From the NCBI GenBank assembly GCA_947458095.1, contig CANGYO010000001.1, positions 6,414 to 70,413 of the forward strand: a stretch of 64,000 nucleotides of DNA. Reading direction: 5' to 3'. Of this stretch, positions 5,319-17,433 are shown piece after piece. Made by a program: the position numbers and the translations under genes. The first letter of the stretch is position 1, and each line of letters opens with the position of its first letter. The notes below the pieces were generated by a model that had not been told where the DNA came from, ran no database searches, and saw only the letters and a program-made list of their open reading frames with translations. Source of the DNA: Vampirovibrionales bacterium (GTDB lineage: Bacteria; Cyanobacteriota; Vampirovibrionia; Vampirovibrionales; JAJTHC01).

Positions 5319-6296
5319 TTACGTCAGCATCAACTGCTCTAGGACTAAGACAGGGTTGTCGTCCCCACTTTTCAGGCGAAACTCCACTTCAAGTAAACGA
5401 CGCTTCAACGCCTCAAGATTCGCCAGACTCAAACCACGCACCTTCTCTAAATCCTTTTGAATAGGGAAGACCTTCTTCCCCTCAACTTGAGCCATCTCTT
5501 CCAATGACTGCCCCACCGCCAACCCACGCTTGATGCGGTAATAATAGTTCACCCGACTCGACAATAAGGCGAGAAACTTAATCGGAGCATCGCTCACCAA
5601 CAACGCATTGAGATCGTGCATGCTCCGATGCGTCAAGCGTTTTTGCAACCACGCATCCACCACGCTAAAGGTTTGGGCATCTAGCACACTAAAGCTTCGC
5701 ACATGGTGGGCTTCAATGACTTGAGCATTCGTAAAGGCATGGAGCTTTTCACATTCATTCACCAAAGGACGCAAGTCATTGCCCATGAACTCCACCAATA
5801 AAAAAGCGGCGTCTCGACTCAAGCGAATATCGAGGTACTGGCATTCTTCCATAAGAAAATGTACGGCTTTTTCAGCGTCCCAAAAGGCGGGCGTATCAAA
5901 CAAGTGAAGCACGCTTGCTTTATGAGATTTTATCCACTTGCCTAATTTCATGCGAACATCCAGCTTCGACGTCAAAAAAATGATGTCCTTCTGCTCCGCT
6001 TGAGCCTCCAACGCCTCAATGAGTTCAGGCACACGCCCCTTGTCGTCTTCTTTGAGATCATACAACCCCTGCCAGTGATGCACTTCCACCACAGGCAAGC
6101 CGCCCAAGGCAAAAAAGCTGGTGTTCAAGGTTTCCAACAACTGCGAAAAACTCGGATCGTCCAAGACATGATGCGTCAACGCACCCAACTCGCTATTGAC
6201 GACCTGCTTCCGCAAAGCCCTAAACGCCCGTTCCTTGCGGTATTCATCCGTGCCGTAAAACACATGAATCGCCATACTTAAAACGCCAATTTCCAA
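5319..6296 (-). CDS. holA: DNA polymerase III delta subunit
   Basis: The 325 aa ORF starts IHVFYGTDEYRKERAF..., a typical HolA start, and its size and helical C-terminal domain are consistent with HolA. It overlaps the upstream MlaD-like gene by 19 nt, suggesting an operon. Confidence 0.65.
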   Translation of the reverse strand: MEIGVLSMAIHVFYGTDEYRKERAFRALRKQVVNSELGALTHHVLDDPSFSQLLETLNTSFFALGGLPVVEVHHWQGLYDLKEDDKGRVPELIEALEAQAEQKDIIFLTSKLDVRMKLGKWIKSHKASVLHLFDTPAFWDAEKAVHFLMEECQYLDIRLSRDAAFLLVEFMGNDLRPLVNECEKLHAFTNAQVIEAHHVRSFSVLDAQTFSVVDAWLQKRLTHRSMHDLNALLVSDAPIKFLALLSSRVNYYYRIKRGLAVGQSLEEMAQVEGKKVFPIQKDLEKVRGLSLANLEALKRRLLEVEFRLKSGDDNPVLVLEQLMLT

Positions 6297-7639
6297 AGCA
6301 CAAAATGCCCTTGCAATTTTTGGCTAAATTGCTTGAGATTTTGAAGGGTCACGGTGGCGTCTTTCACCACATTTTGAAGCACTTCCTTCGTAATCGGATT
6401 GGTTTTGTCATTCGTCACCTGATTCGCTTTCACGAGCAAGGTATTCAGCTCGCTTAAGGTGACTTCCATTTTCGTGGTGAGCGTTTCGGCTTCGAGCTTG
6501 GTTTTCGCCAAAGTCGCCACATTATTCACGTTGTCTAACGCCAAGTTGGCTTTTTTCAGTGTCTGCCCCAGTTCAGGCGAACTAATCAAGGCTTGAGCCT
6601 GCAAGACGGTTTGACGCAAATCGGTGATGAGTCCCTTGAAATCGTCTTTCAGCATAGGGTCGTTCACCAAAATGTTGATATTGTTCATCAAGCGGTTCAG
6701 CGATTTACTCAACGTCGCCACCGATTGCACCATGCTGTGAATGTCTTGTTTCAAGGTTTTGAGCAAGCTTTGTGTGGTCGAAACCAATTCCGTCGTTTGC
6801 CCAGAGAGCAATTTCACGTTTTCAATAATTTGTTGAATATGCACAATGGTTTCAGCATCCAACAGCGCATTGATTTTGTCGTTGGTTTCTTTCAACGCTT
6901 CAGCAGATGCGATCGACGCTTGCAAGAATTTTTTGAGTCGTAACGGCGTTTCCACCGTAAAATAAGTACCACTCGCAGGCAACGACTGAGGCGACCATTC
7001 CGCATCATACGAATCAATCCGCAAGGCAAGCCCCTCTTTAGAAGGCTTCATAAAGTAAAACGGCACTTCAGGCAATAAAATCCCTGGCCGTGTAATGCGA
7101 AAATACAGACGTTTACCCAAGTAAAACTTCTTTTTGTTCAACGGCGTTTCAGGAGGTGCCTGCAAGGCTTCCACCTTTTCAACCGTGCCAATATCCACCC
7201 AGCCTTCTTTCATGCGAAGCTCCAAGTTCCACGGCAAGGGATGCTTAGGCACATTATACGCCGTTTCCACATCCGTCCACTGTAGGTGAGGCGGTGTAAT
7301 CTCAAGGAGCTTTTCGCTAATCAAGCCCGATTGCTCAATCGACAACACCGACGCCTTGGGGATGGGATTGTCTTTGCTGGCGAGGCGAAACTGCACGTCG
7401 ACATCAAACTTGTTTTTGTCGAACTGCGGGATGATTTTTTCCACATAGCCGACTTGGGTTCCCATGAGTTGCACGGGTGCGCCTTCACGCAAACCGTCGA
7501 CATCGGGGAAGGAGACGCTATAGGCGAGGCCTTGTTGGAACTCACGGCTTTTGAGCCAATACACGGTGCCAAATAAAACGCCCAAGCTGAGCAAGGTGAA
7601 GAGTCCTACTTTAACGGCATTGCTTTTTGAAAAAGACAC
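6278..7639 (-). CDS. MlaD/MCE-family protein with a long C-terminal coiled coil
   Basis: The N-terminal TM helix and Mce domain (VKVGLFTLLSLGVLFGTVYWL...GLAYSVSFPDVDGLREGAPVQLMGTQVGYVEKI) are followed by an extended coiled-coil region. Confidence 0.65.
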   Translation of the reverse strand: MSFSKSNAVKVGLFTLLSLGVLFGTVYWLKSREFQQGLAYSVSFPDVDGLREGAPVQLMGTQVGYVEKIIPQFDKNKFDVDVQFRLASKDNPIPKASVLSIEQSGLISEKLLEITPPHLQWTDVETAYNVPKHPLPWNLELRMKEGWVDIGTVEKVEALQAPPETPLNKKKFYLGKRLYFRITRPGILLPEVPFYFMKPSKEGLALRIDSYDAEWSPQSLPASGTYFTVETPLRLKKFLQASIASAEALKETNDKINALLDAETIVHIQQIIENVKLLSGQTTELVSTTQSLLKTLKQDIHSMVQSVATLSKSLNRLMNNINILVNDPMLKDDFKGLITDLRQTVLQAQALISSPELGQTLKKANLALDNVNNVATLAKTKLEAETLTTKMEVTLSELNTLLVKANQVTNDKTNPITKEVLQNVVKDATVTLQNLKQFSQKLQGHFVLWKLAF

Positions 7640-7832
7640 GTCTAACGCTCCTTGTGGATGATTGTCTCTTATCTTACCTCAAAGAACGTTTTTGCACAAT
7701 TTTATTGTTTTGGGTGAACGTGGATTGTGGCTTGAAAGGCTTACGACTTTATGCTAGCCTAATGAAAACCTGAACTAAAAGGGTTGCTAATAAGCAACAC
7801 CCCCATTCTGTAACGAAAGGAGGTGAGGCAAA

Positions 7833-7895
7833 ATGGATCATATAGAACATCTTTCGATGTTACTAATTATCCTCCTTCTAGTGTGGAAACGTTAG
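7833..7895 (+). CDS. Candidate 20-aa hydrophobic peptide MDHIEHLSMLLIILLLVWKR (type I toxin-like small ORF)
   Basis: ATG lies 7 nt after AAAGGAGGTGA. The ORF frame and length are conserved across 4 of the 5 copies, and the C-terminal half is a single hydrophobic helix. Confidence 0.5.
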   Translation: MDHIEHLSMLLIILLLVWKR

Positions 7896-7954
7896 GAGGA
7901 TAGCTTTCAAAGGAGTTCTCAAGCCTCGCAAGCTTGGGGACTCCCCCTTTTTAT

Positions 7955-7983
7955 ATTGTGGCAAATGTCGTGAGCTTTGTCAA
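7955..7983 (-). promoter_or_regulatory. Convergent (antisense) sigma70-like promoter TTGACA-N17-CACAAT
   Basis: On the minus strand the sequence reads TTGACAaagctcacgacatttgcCACAAT. The hexamers and 17-nt spacing are conserved in all five copies while the spacer sequence differs. Confidence 0.55.
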
Positions 7984-8028
7984 GGGGGCGGTTCTATTCT
8001 TCCTCCTGATTTGGGGAGGGCAACCGCC

Positions 8029-9531
8029 TTAGCGTTTCACCTTATTGCGGATCGCCGCCCCAATTTGGAAGAGCAAGTACCCTTGAATGAGGTGTTGCAG
8101 GATGTACACGAGGTAAAACCGCTCCCCCATTTTAGTGGCGACGGTTTTAATAGCGTTTTGAATAGGTTCAACTTTATATAATATAAGTGGGAAGCTAGCA
8201 CTCAAACTAGTCCACAATGGATCCCAAAAACAATTGCCTCTATAGTAAAGAAACCCAAAACAGACCACTATGAAAAACCAAAGTAGCGGAAGCATTGCAC
8301 TTAGTCCATACGCTGATGTCCACAAGTAAAAGGTGTTCCAGCTAAACCATTTGTTTTGATAGAACTGATGCCAAAAGTGAAAGTCGTTAGACAATTGAGC
8401 ATCTCCTGCATCTAAGGCACTGACTTTTAAATAGCCGTAGGATTCTATTTTTTCGAGGGTGTCCGTGGTATTAAGTTTTTTAAAAGCTCGAAACTTTAGC
8501 CAAAACGGGAGAAACTTGAAACATTCAAGTGCTTTTTCAGAATCCCATTTGCAGAGGTAAAATCCCATGCCTGCGACGTAACTACCGCCTGTAATGGAAA
8601 CCTGTTGCATGGCAACCTTTGTAAAGACGACGTTTTTGCCGTAAAAGCCACATTCTTTAAAGTGAACCGTCACCTTTGATTCTTTTTTGAGATTACGCAC
8701 TTTAATACAGATACCACTACTATCCACTTCTATATTTTCAAATTGAACGTTGCCTGTACTTTCTTCTAAGCAATTTTCCAAGTCTACAACAAGCGAACGT
8801 TTATCTGACTCAAAACTCGTGTCTTTTATGATAATCTCGCCGTTTAATTCATTTGGTACAATTCCTAAATAATCGTGCGTGGTGGCGTGGTCAAAATTAA
8901 GTTGAGCATTTTCTAAAATTATTTCTTTAAAAGAAGTGTGCTTTTCGAAGGTGGTGTCTGCGAAATACGCTAAGCCTGAAAAGGAGGCCTTGTAAAAATC
9001 CGCCTTTCTTGAGAAGGTGGTGTTTATGAAATACGCTATGTCTGAAAAGGTGGCCCGCCAAAAATACGCATTACGTTTGAAGGCGGTGTTTGTGAAATCC
9101 GCTATGCCTGAAAAGGTGGTACACCTGAAATCCGCCCTTCTTGAGAAGTTGGTGTGTGTGAAATCCACCTCGCTTGTGAAGGTGGTGTTTGTGAAATACG
9201 CTATGCCTGAAAAGGTGGTGTGTGTGAAATACGCATTACGTGTGAAAATTGTTTTGGTTCCGAAATCACAAGCAATAAACTCTTTTTCAAAAGTGGCACT
9301 CTTGCTATTGAAGGTAAAAGGACATTCTAGGGTGTCCCAAATACCATCATCTGTTTCTATGGGCTTTTTTTCAATACCACACGCAAGTAACAATTCAGCC
9401 AAGTTAAAGTCTACTTTGACTTGGCAGTTTTCAAGGTCTAATACGCCTGAATCGAGGGCTTGACGTAACAGCTCTTCAAGGTCTTTTTTTGTGCTAATCA
9501 CACATTCAATTTGGCGTTCTTTGACGTTCAC
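8029..9531 (-). CDS. Pentapeptide-repeat protein with a C-terminal multi-TM domain
   Basis: Long tandem A(D/N)FxxTxF pentapeptide repeats (NAYFTHTTFSGIAYFTNTTFTSEVDFTHTNFSRRADFRCTTFSGIADF...) are followed by hydrophobic helices (MLPLLWFFIVVCFGFLYY...). Confidence 0.75.
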   Translation of the reverse strand: MNVKERQIECVISTKKDLEELLRQALDSGVLDLENCQVKVDFNLAELLLACGIEKKPIETDDGIWDTLECPFTFNSKSATFEKEFIACDFGTKTIFTRNAYFTHTTFSGIAYFTNTTFTSEVDFTHTNFSRRADFRCTTFSGIADFTNTAFKRNAYFWRATFSDIAYFINTTFSRKADFYKASFSGLAYFADTTFEKHTSFKEIILENAQLNFDHATTHDYLGIVPNELNGEIIIKDTSFESDKRSLVVDLENCLEESTGNVQFENIEVDSSGICIKVRNLKKESKVTVHFKECGFYGKNVVFTKVAMQQVSITGGSYVAGMGFYLCKWDSEKALECFKFLPFWLKFRAFKKLNTTDTLEKIESYGYLKVSALDAGDAQLSNDFHFWHQFYQNKWFSWNTFYLWTSAYGLSAMLPLLWFFIVVCFGFLYYRGNCFWDPLWTSLSASFPLILYKVEPIQNAIKTVATKMGERFYLVYILQHLIQGYLLFQIGAAIRNKVKR

Positions 9532-9600
9532 AGGGTCGTCCTTCTTGCGTTGGGGGTGGGTTTCCCCTAGTCTAGCATGAAAACGCTGTCCCTTGGTTCT

Positions 9601-9730
9601 GTCCCCCCTCCTAATTTTAGGAGGGGGTTAGGGGGCGGTTAAACCCTAGACTCCGTTTGTGGTTTAACCTCACCCTCGAACGTCCTTCAGACGTTCTCTT
9701 CCCTCTCCTAAAATTAGGAGAGGGGACAAG
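9601..9730. repeat. Composite palindromic element P1 (three nested hairpins), reverse complement of the 16679 element
   Basis: It contains cccccctcctaattttaggaggggg, ggttaaaccctagactccgtttgtggtttaacc, gaacgtccttcagacgttc and cccctctcctaaaattaggagagggg. Related copies are at 15140 and 16679. Confidence 0.8.
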
Positions 9731-9793
9731 AAAAAGCTGTAAGCCAATAATAAGAAACACCCCCATTCTGTAACAGAAAGGAGGTGAGCTAAA

Positions 9794-9856
9794 ATGGATA
9801 CTCGTGAAGGACTAATCTTCTTGATTATCTACCTATTAGTCTTAAAACTAAGCTAA
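9794..9856 (+). CDS. Candidate 20-aa hydrophobic peptide MDTREGLIFLIIYLLVLKLS
   Basis: It has the same RBS, frame and length as the other copies. The sequence is divergent but hydrophobicity is preserved. Confidence 0.45.
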   Translation: MDTREGLIFLIIYLLVLKLS

Positions 9857-9911
9857 TAGGCTAGCATGGAGTCTTCAAGTCTCGAACACTTGGGGACTCC
9901 CCCTTTTTTGT

Positions 9912-9940
9912 ATTGTGGCAAATCCCGCACACTTTGTCAA
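9912..9940 (-). promoter_or_regulatory. Convergent promoter TTGACA-N17-CACAAT (copy B)
   Basis: The minus strand reads TTGACAaagtgtgcgggatttgcCACAAT. Confidence 0.5.
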
Positions 9941-9954
9941 GGGGTTTGGCTTTA

Positions 9955-10057
9955 CTCCCTCCATTTTAAGGGGAGGGTTGGGGTGGGGAGTAATGTGTCA
10001 CGCTGGGTTTTCAAAATCCCCCCCTCTCCCTAGCCCTCTCCTCAAGGAGAGGGAACA
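9955..10057. repeat. Palindromic element P6 (a second sub-family; related copy at 50585)
   Basis: The sequence is ggctttactccctcc...ggggagggttggggtgggg...cccctctccctagccctctcctcaaggagagggaacaag. It shares its ends and core with 50585-50700. Confidence 0.65.
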
Positions 10058-10142
10058 AGACACAAAATCGCCCCTCTAGTCAAAAAATCGTGTTTTCAGT
10101 AAACTAAAGCTCTAAACCTAATAAAAAAGGACACCCCCACAA

Positions 10143-13235: not shown

Positions 13236-13260
13236 CCCCCTCCTAATTTTAGGAGAGGGG
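13236..13260. repeat. Single palindromic hairpin P2 (ccccctcctaattttaggagagggg)
   Basis: A perfect 9-bp stem, identical to the arms of the composite P elements. T8 and G7 homopolymer runs lie immediately adjacent. Confidence 0.7.
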
Positions 13261-13483: not shown

Positions 13484-14392
13484 ATGAAAAGCCCCGAAAC
13501 CCTCATGTTATTACACCAAGACGACACACTAAGCTTGCACTTAGGCGATGTGCTAGAAACCCTAGCCAGCTTGCCCCAAGAAAGTGTCGATCTTATTTTT
13601 GCCGACCCCCCCTACAACTTGAGCAACGACGGCTTTACCTGCCACGCAGGCAAACGAGTCAGCGTCAACAAAGGGGTGTGGGACAAAAGCAACGGCGTGC
13701 AAGCCGATTTCGATTTTCACCGTGCGTGGATTTCCGCCTGTTACCGAGTGCTAAAACCCAACGGTAGCCTATGGATTAGTGGCACCTACCATTCCATTTA
13801 CGCTTGCGGATTCGCCCTACAACTCGACGGCTGGCATGTGATTAACGATGTCGCATGGTTCAAGCCCAACGCCGCCCCGAACTTGAGTTGCCGTATGTTT
13901 ACCGCCAGCCATGAAACGCTGATTTGGGCGAGAAAAAGCAAAACCGCCAAGCACACGTTTAACTATGACTTGATGAAAAACGGCATGTGGCATGAAGACG
14001 ATTTCATTAAAAAGCCTGAAAAACAAATGCGAAGCGTGTGGGCAAGTGGCACGCCCAAACCCCACGAAAAAGCCTTTGGTAAGCACCCCACCCAAAAGCC
14101 CGAACTGCTGTTAAGACGCATTGTAATTGCCAGTAGCTTACAAGGTGACGTGGTGCTAGACCCCTTTTGTGGGAGCGGTACAACAGGCGTAGTCGCCTTA
14201 CAACACGGACGCAACTTCATTGGCATTGACCAAAACCGTGAGTATTTGGAAGGGATTGCCATTCGCCGTTTAAAACACATTCAAGAACAAGTGCAAGCGT
14301 GTATAATAAAGGAACAGTTAGAGTCCTTGTATGCACTGGATGCCTATATAGATGAGTCTTCAATTCAACTTAGCTTATGCGGAATCTTATAA
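13484..14392 (+). CDS. Beta-class N6-adenine/N4-cytosine DNA methyltransferase of the CcrM/M.HinfI/DpnA family
   Basis: Motif IV DPPY (VDLIFADPPYNL) precedes motif I (LDPFCGSGTTG). Conserved blocks AHETLIWARKSKTAKHTFNYD and HPTQKPELLLRRI match the CcrM/HinfI methylase family. Confidence 0.85.
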   Translation: MKSPETLMLLHQDDTLSLHLGDVLETLASLPQESVDLIFADPPYNLSNDGFTCHAGKRVSVNKGVWDKSNGVQADFDFHRAWISACYRVLKPNGSLWISGTYHSIYACGFALQLDGWHVINDVAWFKPNAAPNLSCRMFTASHETLIWARKSKTAKHTFNYDLMKNGMWHEDDFIKKPEKQMRSVWASGTPKPHEKAFGKHPTQKPELLLRRIVIASSLQGDVVLDPFCGSGTTGVVALQHGRNFIGIDQNREYLEGIAIRRLKHIQEQVQACIIKEQLESLYALDAYIDESSIQLSLCGIL

Positions 14393-15134
14393 TAGTGAAA
14401 CGCAACGTGTTAGACGTATGTCTGAAAAATGGCTGGTGGAAGAATCATATTGCCCTGCGTGTGGGGGACGTTTGGCGGAATATCCCAATAATAAACCTGT
14501 GCGAGATACGTATTGTGAAGATTGTGGTGAAAAATACGAGCTAAAATCTAAAAAAAGTAGTGAAAAAGGACTTTTAAAGCTTCCTGAAAAAATTGTGGAT
14601 GGGGCGTATGCCACGATGATGCAAGATATGGAAGCCCAAACGACTCCCAATTTATTATTTTTACAATACTTAAGTGGCTATACGGTGGCGTCTTTACTGG
14701 TGATTCCTAAGCAGTTTTTCGTGCCTGCTTTAATTGAAAAGCGTAACCCTTTATCCAAGACGGCACGACGTGCAGGCTGGGTGGGTTGTAATATCCTACT
14801 AGAACCCATTCCACAAGTGGGACGGATTCCCATTATTCAAAACAAAGTATTTGAACCGAAGGATAAGGTTATTTCTATTTTTCAGAAAACCTTATTTTTA
14901 CGACATCAACAAAAACTTGAAGCTAAAGGCTGGTTGCTGGATGTGATGCGGTGTGTGGAACTCATCGGCAAAGAAGAGTTTACGTTGCAAGATATTTATC
15001 AACATGAAGCGATGCTGAAAGACTTACATCCCGACAATAATAATGTGCAAGCGAAGATACGGCAACAATTGCAAGTCTTGCGAGACGCAGGCTTCTTGGC
15101 GTTTGTGGGTCGTGGGGTGTATCGGGTGGTGTAA
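14352..15134 (+). CDS. DpnI-like methyl-directed (G6mATC-type) restriction endonuclease; overlaps the methyltransferase by 41 nt
   Basis: The 260 aa ORF resembles DpnI along its length as recalled from memory: MSLQFNL...SYCPACGG...YCEDCGEKYELKSKK...DGAYATMMQ...ARRAGWVGCNI...EFTLQDIY...KIRQQLQVLRDAGFLAFVGRGVYRVV. DpnI has an N-terminal PD-(D/E)XK nuclease and a C-terminal winged helix. Confidence 0.8.
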   Translation: MSLQFNLAYAESYNSETQRVRRMSEKWLVEESYCPACGGRLAEYPNNKPVRDTYCEDCGEKYELKSKKSSEKGLLKLPEKIVDGAYATMMQDMEAQTTPNLLFLQYLSGYTVASLLVIPKQFFVPALIEKRNPLSKTARRAGWVGCNILLEPIPQVGRIPIIQNKVFEPKDKVISIFQKTLFLRHQQKLEAKGWLLDVMRCVELIGKEEFTLQDIYQHEAMLKDLHPDNNNVQAKIRQQLQVLRDAGFLAFVGRGVYRVV

Positions 15135-15139
15135 ATGCC

Positions 15140-15267
15140 GTCCCCTCTCCTAATTTTAGGAGAGGGAAGAGAACGTCTGAAAGACGTTCGAGGGGGAGCT
15201 TAGACTCACCACGGGCATCTAGGGTTTAACCGCCCCCTAACACCCTCCTAAAATCAGGAGGGGGGAC
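15140..15267. repeat. Composite palindromic element P3
   Basis: It contains gtcccctctcctaattttaggagaggg, gaacgtctgaaagacgttc, ...tagggtttaacc... and ccctcctaaaatcaggagggg. It has the same architecture as the elements at 9601 and 16679. Confidence 0.75.
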
Positions 15268-15286
15268 AAAGCCAATTGGGTTTCGT

Positions 15287-15422: not shown

Positions 15423-15451
15423 TTGACAAAGCGTGCAACATTTGACACAAT
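15423..15451 (+). promoter_or_regulatory. Convergent promoter TTGACA-N17-CACAAT (copy C, plus strand because the module is inverted)
   Basis: The plus strand reads TTGACAaagcgtgcaacatttgaCACAAT. Confidence 0.5.
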
Positions 15452-15507
15452 ATAAAAAGGGAGAGTCCCCAAGTCGGTAAACTTGAGAACTCTTTTTCGC
15501 TATCCTC

Positions 15508-15570
15508 CTAGAGTTTTGTCACTAGAAGGAGGATAATTAACAGCGACATAAGTTTCTGAAGTTCATCCAT
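15508..15570 (-). CDS. Candidate 20-aa hydrophobic peptide MDELQKLMSLLIILLLVTKL
   Basis: It has the same RBS spacing, length and C-terminal LLIILLLVTKL as copies A and E. Confidence 0.5.
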   Translation of the reverse strand: MDELQKLMSLLIILLLVTKL

Positions 15571-15711
15571 TTTAGCTCACCTCCTTTCTGTTACAGAACG
15601 GGGGTGTTGCTTATTAGCAACCCTTTAAAGGTTTTTATTAGACTAGCACAAAGCCTTAGCAGGTTCAAGCCAGATACGGCAACAATGGCAAGTCTTGCTT
15701 GAATCCGCCTG

Positions 15712-16668
15712 ATGCTTTTTTGTGAAAGGATGCCCTCTTTGATTCCACGCACCGACATCCAAAAACAGCTCAACGACGTGGGCATTACGCAGTGGGGCGT
15801 TCTCACCACCGATGCCCTCAAAAACGAAGCCCAACGCCTGACGGCGTGGCTGGAGGCTGGGCATCACGCCGACATGGACTGGATGCCTCGTCACGCCGAA
15901 AAACGGGTGTCTCCGTCTGATTTGTGGGAAGGCGTGCAAAGTGTCGTGGTGGTGGCCGTCAACTACTTCCCTGGTTGGGAAGCAGGGCAAGGCGACGATC
16001 TGAAAATCGCTCGCTACGCCCTAGGCAAGGACTATCACAAGGTGATTCGTCGTAAGCTTGGCAAGGTTTTAAAGGCGTTACAGGCGGAACATGAGGGCTT
16101 AGAGGGTCGTCCCTTTGTGGATTCGGCGCCTTTGCTTGAAAAGGCGTTAGCCGTTCAAGCAGGCTTGGGCTGGCAAGGCAAGCATAGTCTTTTAATCACG
16201 AAAGAAGCAGGGTCATGGGTGATGCTTGGGGCGTTGTTCCTCAATCAAGCCGTTGATGCCTATACCAGTCCCCACGAAAACACGCTGGAATCGGGGCATT
16301 GTGGGACCTGTACGCGGTGCATCACGGCTTGCCCCACGGAGGCGATCGTCTCGCCCACGGTCGTCGACAGCCGTCGGTGCATCGCCTATTGGACGATTGA
16401 AAATGGAGATGATGCTTTGCCTGATTTTATCCAAGACAACCAGCAGGATTGGGGCTTTGGATGCGACATTTGCCAAGATGTCTGCCCATGGAACCTGAAG
16501 TTTTCTAACGTGACTGAGGAGCCTGCCTTTGCCCCTCGGGCGGTGTTGGCACATCCGAATCGGGCGTATTTTCAGAGTTTGAGTGAAGCCGCTTTTGCTC
16601 AAGCCTTTGAAAATAGTCCCTTGCGTCGCACGGGCTTGAGGCGGATCCAGCGGAATATCATGCTTTAG
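15712..16668 (+). CDS. queG: Epoxyqueuosine reductase
   Basis: The 318 aa ORF has a QueG-type layout with a C-terminal 4Fe-4S ferredoxin motif (CGTCTRCITACPT) and a second Cys cluster (CDICQDVCPWN). The start may be the downstream ATG at 15730. Confidence 0.75.
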   Translation: MLFCERMPSLIPRTDIQKQLNDVGITQWGVLTTDALKNEAQRLTAWLEAGHHADMDWMPRHAEKRVSPSDLWEGVQSVVVVAVNYFPGWEAGQGDDLKIARYALGKDYHKVIRRKLGKVLKALQAEHEGLEGRPFVDSAPLLEKALAVQAGLGWQGKHSLLITKEAGSWVMLGALFLNQAVDAYTSPHENTLESGHCGTCTRCITACPTEAIVSPTVVDSRRCIAYWTIENGDDALPDFIQDNQQDWGFGCDICQDVCPWNLKFSNVTEEPAFAPRAVLAHPNRAYFQSLSEAAFAQAFENSPLRRTGLRRIQRNIML

Positions 16669-16678
16669 AGAATCGCCT

Positions 16679-16808
16679 TGTCCCCTCTCCTAATTTTAGG
16701 AGAGGGAAGAGAACGTCGTTAGACGTTCGAGGGTGAGGTTAAACCTTAGACTCCGTTTGTGGGTTTAACCGCCCCCTAGCCCCCTCCTAAAATTAGGAGG
16801 GGGGACAA
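16679..16808. repeat. Composite palindromic element P5
   Basis: It contains gtcccctctcctaattttaggagaggg, gaacgtcgttagacgttc, ggttaaaccttagactccgtttgtgggtttaacc and ccctcctaaaattaggagggggg. It is the reverse complement of P1. Confidence 0.8.
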
Positions 16809-16880
16809 AACAAAAGCTACATTTGGATATTTCCCATAAAAGCTAAACACCCCCAATCTAATAGAAAGGAGGTGAGCTAA

Positions 16881-16955
16881 ATGGATAATAGTCAACAAGT
16901 GTTGATTTTAATGATTATCCTCCTTCTAGCGACAAAAACTAGGAGGATAGCATAA
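16881..16955 (+). CDS. Candidate 24-aa peptide MDNSQQVLILMIILLLATKTRRIA (a 1-nt indel extends the C-terminus)
   Basis: It uses the same RBS and frame as the other copies. A single-base difference relative to copy E removes the usual TAG and extends the ORF by 4 codons. Confidence 0.4.
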   Translation: MDNSQQVLILMIILLLATKTRRIA

Positions 16956-16998
16956 AGGAGTTCTCAAGCTTTTACGCTTGGGGACTCCCCCTTTTTAT

Positions 16999-17027
16999 AT
17001 TGTGGCAAATGTAGAAGCCTTTGTCAA
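16999..17027 (-). promoter_or_regulatory. Convergent promoter TTGACA-N17-CACAAT (copy D)
   Basis: The minus strand reads TTGACAaaggcttctacatttgcCACAAT. Confidence 0.5.
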
Positions 17028-17170
17028 GAGGGCGGCTGGTTTATAGTACCCCTGTTTGTAGACCTTGTTTATACTTGAAAGCCTTGCGATTTTATGCTAG
17101 CTTATAAAAAACCTTAAAAGGGTTGCTAATAAGCAACACCCCCAATCTAACAGAAAGGAGGTGAAGCAAA

Positions 17171-17233
17171 ATGGATCATATAGAACATCTTTCGATGTTA
17201 CTAATTATCCTCCTTCTAGTGACGAAACTCTAG
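17171..17233 (+). CDS. Candidate 20-aa hydrophobic peptide MDHIEHLSMLLIILLLVTKL
   Basis: ATG lies 7 nt after AAAGGAGGTGA. The 3' end of the ORF sits inside the anti-SD-containing hairpin. Confidence 0.5.
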   Translation: MDHIEHLSMLLIILLLVTKL

Positions 17234-17289
17234 GAGGATAGCTGAACGGAGTTCTCAAGCTTTTACGCTTGGGGACTCCCCCTTTTTAT

Positions 17290-17318
17290 ATTGTGGCAAA
17301 TGTAGAAGCTTTTGTCAA
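17290..17318 (-). promoter_or_regulatory. Convergent promoter TTGACA-N17-CACAAT (copy E)
   Basis: The minus strand reads TTGACAaaagcttctacatttgcCACAAT. Confidence 0.5.
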
Positions 17319-17433
17319 GATCTCGCCATCAATTACACATCATGCAAAAACTGTATTTTTAAGCTCACACGTTAAAAATCCGTTGAAACGTTTCTATAAT
17401 AGTAGGCATCACTAAAATGAGGAAGCCCCTGCT

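Follow-up and report, generated by a model that had tools for sequence, protein, structure and literature searches.

What is the function of a hairpin that lies over the last codons and the stop codon of a very small gene? The question is raised by a repeated module in a 64,000-nt stretch of DNA (contig CANGYO010000001.1, positions 6,414 to 70,413) from a member of the Vampirovibrionales, which are predatory non-photosynthetic relatives of cyanobacteria. The whole stretch is called the window here, and coordinates refer to it unless another locus is named. A profile search detected exactly five copies of the ~190-nt module in the window: A (7795–7984, + strand), B (9756–9942, +), C (15609–15422, −), D (16846–17028, +) and E (17134–17319, +), with D and E in tandem. 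Each copy contains, in this order, the block ACACCCCC, the Shine-Dalgarno (SD) sequence GAAAGGAGGTGA located 3–5 nt ahead of ATG, an open reading frame (ORF) of 20–24 codons, the hairpin, a terminator and a promoter on the opposite strand. The original prediction concerned positions 7860–9880, which run from the hairpin of copy A through the hairpin of copy B, and assigned the hairpin a role in hiding the ribosome-binding site. Comparison of the modules across the family indicates that the hairpin is a real, selected RNA stem-loop whose stem is kept by compensating mutations, and folding models indicate that the ribosome-binding site is probably hidden by something else.

All five window copies form a stem-loop over the last codons and the stop of a hydrophobic ORF of 20–24 aa, with folding energies of −12.9 to −15.4 kcal/mol and z-scores of −3.3 to −4.0 when each copy was compared with 200 dinucleotide shuffles. 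Hairpin A (7867–7903, +) spans codons 12–20 and the TAG stop (−15.2 kcal/mol, z −3.32). The corresponding values are −13.2 kcal/mol and z −3.88 for hairpin B (9829–9864, +), −15.4 kcal/mol and z −3.89 for C (15536–15500, −), −12.9 kcal/mol and z −3.80 for D (16915–16950, +), and −15.4 kcal/mol and z −3.99 for E (17205–17241, +); in every copy 0 of 200 shuffles were as stable. A hairpin at the 3' end of the small ORF had been claimed for A, C, D and E, and a stable fold was indeed obtained in each. The arm sequences quoted for these copies are correct except in copy A, which reads gTTAGGAGGATA and not cTAGGAGGATA, so that its closing pair is G.U. The loops are TGTGGAAACG in A, TGACAAAACT in C, CGACAAAAA in D, TGACGAAACT in E and TCTTAAAACTAAG in B. 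They are distinct in all five copies, as had been said, with C and E differing by 1 nt only. Copy B had been described as completely different in primary sequence and still forming a hairpin at the same place. The hairpin is present there, reading CTA-CCTATTAG ... CTAATAGG-c-TAG with an inner CTTA/TAAG extension and the TAA stop in the 3' arm, but its sequence departs from the others at only ~4 of the 16 positions of the 5' arm and at 3 of the 12 positions of the 3' arm. Position by position, the copy B helix is homologous not to the most stable helix of A, C, D and E (TTATCCTCCT/AGGAGGATAG, register i) but to an alternative helix of 8 bp (CCTTCTAG/CTAGGAGG, register ii), which every copy is able to form.

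The larger alignment was obtained from a pattern scan of species-representative genomes, which gave 20 loci holding 26 more full modules beyond the window. A metagenome scan with the antisense-promoter pattern added a divergent module (L022), a variant (L023) and a truncated copy (L024). Every collected module, across subfamilies, has the hairpin, with energies of −7 to −17 kcal/mol. Covariation was scored on alignment A2, comprising 25 distinct hairpins out of 31 modules plus L023. Register ii is paired in 98.5% of the cells, and in four of its eight pairs both partners have changed. The covariation score of this helix is 0.378 vs. 0.174 ± 0.021 for shuffled alignments, with 0 of 500 shuffles reaching 0.378, and slid controls gave at most 64% paired cells and scores of at most 0.164. 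The same helix was predicted independently by RNAalifold from 23 full-length mRNAs. Register i was rejected as a family-wide structure in favor of register ii, since only 84% of its cells are paired, which is not above its own controls. The arms vary together across the subfamilies, as in CCTTCTAG/CTAGGAGG, CCTATTAG/CTAATAGG, CTTGTTAG/CTAACAAG and CCTATTAA/TTAATAGG, and the divergent L022 has TCTTAATC/GATTAAGA. In one of the compensated changes a Leu codon goes from CTA to TTG with no effect on the residue, and the 3' arm changes to match; in L015 the stop changes from TAA to TAG and a U.G pair is retained. The aligned sequences are related, so the number of independent compensatory events is modest, at least four to six. 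The claim of a structure conserved by covariation is borne out on this wider sample, as judged by the doubly changed pairs and by a score above both shuffled and slid controls. The RNAalifold consensus also contains a 4-bp helix of the start-codon region, GGAU / AUC(C/U), just 5' of the hairpin. It was not relied on, as none of its pairs is doubly changed and two sequences interrupt it.

The second claim concerned the 5' arm, CCTCC, which was taken for an anti-SD of the upstream SD. Under this model the arm CCUCC would be released from the hairpin to bind the upstream AAAGGAGG, giving a Hok/TisB- or AapA3-like switch that is possibly opened by 3' processing. ORF-embedded SD-sequestering hairpins do exist in aapA3 mRNA (PMC6733600), and as isolated duplexes in type 1 modules the SD pairs more strongly with the hairpin 5' arm (−11.2 kcal/mol) than with an upstream anti-SD, CACCCCC (−9.1 kcal/mol). 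Imposing SD:CCUCC on the full transcript, however, costs +11 to +16 kcal/mol. In the ensemble of the full-length mRNA the SD is predicted to pair with the upstream CACCCCC at a probability (P) of ~0.85 in 28 of 29 modules (0.66 in L018) and with anything downstream, CCUCC included, at P ≤0.03 in 28 of 29 (0.16 in L018). In nascent copy E transcripts that do not yet include the 3' arm, SD:CCUCC has a P of 0.2–0.5 and pairing with the upstream CACCCCC drops to 0.38–0.63, which favors the switch. With the 5' arm out and the 3' arm not yet made, copy A gives ≤0.08 (upstream pairing 0.65–0.78), and the three type 2/3 copies tested give 0 (upstream pairing 0.80–0.85). Removal of the 5' anti-SD is not predicted to release the SD to the hairpin either: the SD then pairs, by prediction, with the 3' tail CCCCCUUUUU, and SD:CCUCC stays at 0.00–0.05.

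Sequence comparison points in the same direction. The motif CCTCC is confined to the type 1 subfamily, where it represents the codons CUC-CUU (Leu-Leu). It is absent from types 2, 3 and 4 and from L022 although the SD there is the same or similar; CTACCT, CTACTT, CTTCTT or TCTCTT stands at this position in subfamilies that share the SD. The covarying pairs preserve the arm-to-arm helix and not complementarity to the SD, and a conserved ORF-embedded anti-SD of the aapA3 type was not found in the family. The CCUCC/AGGAGG of type 1 simply follows from the Leu codons CUC-CUU and the sequence complementary to them and is not a conserved anti-SD, and the switch is very unlikely. What stands of the proposed fold-back translational control is the predicted occlusion of the SD and the type I toxin-like setting; the hairpin arm does not stand as the partner.

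The upstream CACCCCC lies 14–16 nt upstream of the SD and is identical in every 5'-complete main-family module, and its helix with the SD is present in the RNAalifold consensus. Type I toxin mRNAs typically sequester the SD with an anti-SD close upstream (PMC8594479). In L023 and L022, whose detection did not depend on the 5' pattern, an upstream partner with different letters masks the SD, namely ACCTTCT/AGAAGGT in L023 and a C-run paired with GG.GG in L022. Sequestration of the SD as in toxin mRNAs is a thermodynamic prediction here, with covariation seen in the L023 variant alone. In addition, in all modules the 5' end AAAAGGG is complementary to the tail CCCUUUUU that follows the terminator stem at the 3' end (e.g., 7777–7783 with 7945–7952 in the window). 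With the 5' anti-SD removed, this tail can also pair with GAAAGG of the SD. The AAAGGG/CCCUUU pairing also appears in the RNAalifold consensus and, being invariant, carries no covariation information; by these folds it may represent a possible Hok-like fold-back.

The ORF itself is open in 31 of 31 full modules. A 1-nt deletion shortens the peptide to 16 aa in L012, and the other 30 of 31 encode 19–24 aa. The hydrophobic cores read LLIILLLV or IFLIIYLLV, and the subfamilies include MDHIEHLSMLLIILLLVxKL, MDIREAIIFLIIYLLVLKLN (the type of copy B), MITSEILLLLIIFLLVLKN and others, which are set apart by a 3-nt indel while the ORF start and the SD are fixed. Variable columns at the first, second and third codon positions number 10, 5 and 12, and 5, 3 and 8, so that the second position is least variable, and the pooled ratios of nonsynonymous to synonymous polymorphism (pN/pS) are 0.58 and 0.27. 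On these sequence statistics the ORF behaves as coding sequence and the peptide appears to be under purifying selection. The stop codon is always inside the 3' arm of the hairpin. The three most variable loop bases form codon 18 (T/S/W/C/N/V), which adjoins an invariant Lys codon. A small (<60 aa) hydrophobic ORF with its own ribosome-binding site, such as this one, is a property of type I toxins. Pfam and NCBIfam scans of 14 peptides at E up to 10 gave no family, with one chance MgtR match (E 0.033), and no Pfam match to Hok was obtained among the module peptides.

On the opposite strand, the promoter of each copy (TTGACA-17-CACAAT with a TG extension) is directed back into the module. With its TG, TTGACA-17-TGnCACAAT scores 10 of 12, and its −35, extended −10 and 17-nt spacing are essentially identical in ~30 of 31 modules, with variation in the middle of the spacer and in the n of TGn. 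The 31 modules were ascertained via the 5' pattern and not via this promoter. The putative minus-strand promoter is the best-conserved non-coding part of the module. A minus-strand terminator-like hairpin is present at the module 5' end in 25 of 31. The predicted antisense RNA of copy A (7775–7948, −) would have ~174 nt, starting ~7 nt after CACAAT and ending at GTTGCTTATTAGCAAC followed by CCTTTTAG (7798–7783). The complement of the SD, of the entire ORF, of the hairpin and of the sense terminator would all lie within this RNA, and its fold (−59 kcal/mol, z −4.18) would be a mirror image of that of the mRNA.

Taken together, these features suggest that the module is a type I toxin-antitoxin-like cassette of Ibs/Sib layout, with the hairpin serving in sense/antisense recognition and/or as an mRNA-stabilizing element, a reading that we consider somewhat better than an even bet. 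The type I part is indicated by the small hydrophobic ORF, the strong SD, the terminator, the multiple and tandem copies and the conserved antisense promoter. A modest sense promoter (TTGAAn, 17 nt, TGnTAnnnT) would produce an mRNA of ~185 nt, in which a near-consensus SD would be locked in a local hairpin by the CACCCCC upstream. A stronger convergent promoter (TTGACA, 17 nt, TGnCACAAT) just past the terminator would produce an antisense RNA complementary to the whole mRNA. Since the mRNA and the antisense RNA are mutually complementary, both would carry a mirror-image hairpin with complementary loops. The conserved stem may present the variable loop as the site of contact and discrimination between an mRNA and its own antisense RNA, like the TRD1 loop in SibC/ibsC, and the hairpin may also, or instead, stabilize the mRNA 3' end. 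A recognition stem-loop is favored because the stem is constrained, the loop is variable, the loops are complementary and SibC/ibsC gives a precedent. Copies A and E, which are close paralogs, differ in 24 places, every one of them in a loop, a linker or the promoter spacer.

Known type I systems share several of these features. Ibs peptides have 18–19 aa, and the module peptides (19–24 aa here) are likewise very short and hydrophobic. Ibs/Sib also has five copies, and its antisense RNA covers the ribosome-binding site and the whole ORF (PMC4147584). Similarly, five paralogous copies, some of them in tandem, occur in the genome region studied here, and the span of the cis-antisense RNA over the ribosome-binding site and whole ORF is predicted from the positions of promoter and terminator. 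In SibC/ibsC, recognition starts at a loop in the ORF and the recognition domains lie in regions variable among paralogs (PMC2943612); variable segments including the ORF-internal loop distinguish the module paralogs in the same way (PMC4147584, PMC2943612). Unlike Ibs/Sib, the modules have a host of a different phylum and an SD masked by a close upstream C-run, and their mRNA and predicted antisense RNA appear to be near-exact mirror images that end at separate terminators. Sequence similarity to Ibs/Sib is absent (no Pfam, NCBIfam or Rfam match), and the modules do not belong to that family by sequence. No Rfam family matched the whole window at gathering score, and a search with module A at E up to 10 gave no Sib and only a sub-threshold PyrR match and three snoRNA chance matches, all of which were rejected.

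The short upstream anti-SD stem-loop is shared with aapA/IsoA of Helicobacter pylori and with the SD/anti-SD logic of type I systems in T1TAdb (PMC6733600, PMC8594479). Further likenesses to aapA/IsoA are the possible long-distance 5'-3' pairing and a pyrimidine-rich ORF sequence that can pair transiently with the SD, whereas the ORF-embedded anti-SD of aapA is not conserved in the module family. IsoA overlaps the 5' region only, while the predicted antisense RNA of the modules overlaps the whole mRNA. Loop-loop contacts are known from antisense systems of the CopA/CopT type, and the stem-loops of the modules could, by prediction, be first contact points of this kind. A convergent arrangement, in which the antisense RNA starts past the toxin terminator and shares it, is found in Fst RNAI/RNAII, TxpA/RatA and BsrG/SR4 (PMC4147584). 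Unlike in such 3'-overlapping type I systems, the predicted overlap in the modules continues through the ORF and the SD.

Several observations weigh against the type I reading with a recognition hairpin. Neutral drift explains the loop variability equally well, as the loops are as variable as other unconstrained positions, and the loops of C and E are one base apart. Copies B and D are without the usual sense promoter. In the Pfam and NCBIfam scans the peptide matches no toxin family, and its hydrophobic core is short. The promoters, the transcript ends and the antisense RNA are sequence predictions. As for the SD mask, the invariance of CACCCCC and of the SD is partly imposed by the pattern of the genome scan and so has little weight and carries no covariation, and the support for upstream masking from L022 and L023 is anecdotal. 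The wobble pairs give only a weak hint on the strand of function: three to four events pair in the sense RNA only (G.U) vs. one in the antisense RNA only (A.C, L017), and folding energies are alike on both strands.

This hint bears on a doubtful alternative in which the helix acts in the sense mRNA only, through message stability or through ribosome passage or termination at the buried stop, with no antisense recognition. Most of the one-sided changes, such as the closing pair of the A type, that of L015 and the U.G of type 1, give a G.U in the sense RNA where the antisense RNA would have A.C. In addition, the stop codon lies invariably in the 3' arm, and a ribosome at the stop would, as read from the sequence, end just short of the terminator stem. 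But L017 shows the opposite change, with A.C on the sense side, the antisense RNA folds as stably as the sense RNA, and type 1 copies have a fully Watson-Crick register on both strands. It is rather improbable that the module is no toxin-antitoxin system at all and represents a small membrane-protein gene with a cis-antisense regulator, or that the minus-strand RNA is a leader or attenuator for a downstream gene. The antisense promoters of A, B and C do face the starts of neighboring genes (6278–7639, −; 8029–9531, −; and queG, 15712–16668, +, respectively), and there is no homology to known toxins, but those of D and E face another module or the end of a gene. The PyrR binding site match (RF00515; 7790–7917, −), a further point in its favor, reached 27.9 bits with an E of 0.062 in a 401-nt search, far under the gathering score of 54; it was judged a chance match, and the neighboring genes are not pyr genes. 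The multi-copy, tandem and presence/absence behavior together with a conserved translated ORF fits a type I cassette better. The palindrome could finally be a feature of the DNA, such as a repeat resembling repetitive extragenic palindromes (REP) or miniature inverted-repeat transposable elements (MITE) or a recombination site, and not an RNA structure. The same intergenic regions often contain REP-like palindromes with many CCTCC/GGAGG motifs. Nevertheless, the hairpin sequence is unrelated to them, the helix lies within a conserved ORF between conserved promoter and terminator signals, and G.U pairs, which would be mismatches in a DNA cruciform, are tolerated, so that we give this explanation hardly any credence.

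The individual modules are arranged as follows. In each copy the terminator has 13 bp (GGAGTTCTCAAG...CTTGGGGACTCC) and is followed by CCCTTTTT. Module A is complete (7732–7983, +). Its putative sense promoter consists of TTGAAA (7732–7737), 17 nt and TGc-TAGCCT (7755–7760), and is followed by a 5' hairpin (7781–7802), the anti-SD CACCCCC (7798–7804), the SD GGAGGTG (7819–7825), the ORF (7833–7895, MDHIEHLSMLLIILLLVWKR) and the terminator (7912–7944, with a T-run to 7952). The antisense promoter (−) has its −10 CACAAT at 7960–7955 and its −35 TTGACA at 7983–7978. Module B (9756–9940, +) encodes the type 2 peptide MDTREGLIFLIIYLLVLKLS and comprises the anti-SD (9758–9764), the SD (9780–9786), the ORF (9794–9856), the terminator (9868–9900, with a T-run) and the antisense promoter (9940–9912, −). 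Module C is complete (15423–15668, −), with the sense promoter TTGAAC (15668–15663) and TGc-TAGTCT (15645–15640), the SD (15584–15578), the ORF (15570–15508, MDELQKLMSLLIILLLVTKL) and the terminator (~15493–15461, with a T-run to 15454), all on the minus strand, and with TTGACA (15423–15428) and CACAAT (15446–15451) of the antisense promoter on the plus strand. Module D (16846–17027, +) has the anti-SD at 16848–16854, the SD at 16868–16874, the ORF at 16881–16955 (MDNSQQVLILMIILLLATKTRRIA) and the terminator at 16957–16988 with a T-run to 16996. Its antisense promoter (−) lies at 17004–16999 (−10) and 17027–17022 (−35), and its hairpin loop is 1 nt shorter, so that the stop codon is shifted downstream. 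Module E is complete (17075–17318, +), with the sense promoter TTGAAA (17075–17080) and TGc-TAGCTT (17098–17103), the anti-SD (17137–17143), the SD (17157–17163), the ORF (17171–17233, MDHIEHLSMLLIILLLVTKL), the terminator (17248–17279, with a T-run to 17287) and the antisense promoter (−10 at 17295–17290 and −35 at 17318–17313, −).

The upstream sense promoter (TTGAAn-17-TGnTAGCCT) is found in copies A, C and E only and was read from conservation, as a consensus scan does not list it; TAGCCT matches the consensus at only three of six positions. The same three copies have the 5' hairpin GGGTTGC-TAATAA-GCAACaCCC, whose minus-strand reading (GTTGCTTATTAGCAAC CCTTTTAG) is terminator-like. In copies B and D a REP-like palindromic element (9590–9737 and 16677–16808, respectively) stands in place of the sense promoter and the 5' hairpin.

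These REP-like elements are composite palindromes of ~115–145 nt and were found at 9590–9737, 15146–15270 and 16677–16808 and also at 9945–10060, with single arms near 8002–8019 and 13239–13256. They are built of two CCTCCTAAnnTTAGGAGG-type hairpins around a central part (8 matches vs. 0.06 expected by chance), adjoin modules A, B, C and D, and occur as the same element in L004 and L019. Between modules A and B lies an ORF of 500 aa (8029–9531, −) with near-identical ~60-nt repeats (...FTxTxFSxxAxF...), whose product resembles proteins of the pentapeptide-repeat type and has a hydrophobic C-terminal part. Directly ahead of module C, an N6/N4 DNA methyltransferase gene (13484–14392, +; PF01555) overlaps the gene of a DpnI-like methyl-directed endonuclease (14352–15134, +; PF06044 and PF17726); these domains were taken from a precomputed table for the sister contig L001. 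This contig has identical modules (equal nhmmer scores) and differs from the window by a 22-bp intergenic indel between 12630 and 12760, by which it was judged to be a strain variant and not the same assembly.

How widely is the cassette distributed? Among the 20 loci of the pattern scan, 18 are labeled Vampirovibrionales or Vampirovibrio and two "Gammaproteobacteria" (L004 and L017; JBEISK01). Spread to another phylum was considered on account of this label and rejected, as the label is probably wrong or the contigs are mis-binned; L004 carries the REP-like elements of the window. The cassette appears confined to the Vampirovibrionales (Melainabacteria). Viral contigs scanned with the antisense-promoter pattern gave no match, and with the 5' pattern they gave one chance match at the start of an unrelated phage gene, so these scans suggest no sign of phage-borne modules. 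Three genomes have 5–7 copies each, tandem pairs or triplets occur in L004, L007, L008 and L009, and modules differ in presence or absence between related genomes. In L008 (7284–6848, −; compared with 7795–8030 of the window) the ortholog of copy A has a tandem neighbor behind it that belongs to a different subfamily (MITSETLLLLIIFLLVLKS), and the window has just a short palindrome in the place of this second module, which implies gain or loss of modules among close relatives. A partial module was also observed in L014 (4370–4299, −). Its sense promoter, 5' hairpin, SD and an 18-aa ORF (MIMSETILLLFSLFLCIL) are intact, and its 3' half, including the hairpin, the terminator and the antisense promoter, is replaced by unrelated sequence.

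Type I toxin-antitoxin families are known mainly from Proteobacteria and Firmicutes, and they are hard to find because their peptides are too short for gene callers and homology searches. The ~250-bp cassettes were left uncalled by the gene caller in the single called contig examined. A full-text literature search returned no paper linking Melainabacteria with type I toxins. If the proposed role is correct, the modules would represent a well-delimited new type I family in Melainabacteria. As the promoters, the SD mask, the peptide, the covarying stem-loop and the terminators can all be read from the sequence, the cassette would serve as a compact model system for mirror-image sense and antisense RNAs. 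In annotation, the finding draws attention to ~250-bp cassettes in metagenome-assembled genomes of Vampirovibrionales, and it implies that a CCUCC/AGGAGG palindrome in a Leu-rich ORF should not be called an anti-SD before the family has been checked. A more specific and unlikely proposal, which we put forward tentatively, is that the modules form an undescribed type I family specific to Vampirovibrionales in which the stem-loop at the end of the ORF is the specificity determinant, its loop lying over the hypervariable residue 18. If true, the peptide and its antisense recognition would diversify in a mechanically coupled way, and many paralogs could coexist without cross-talk.

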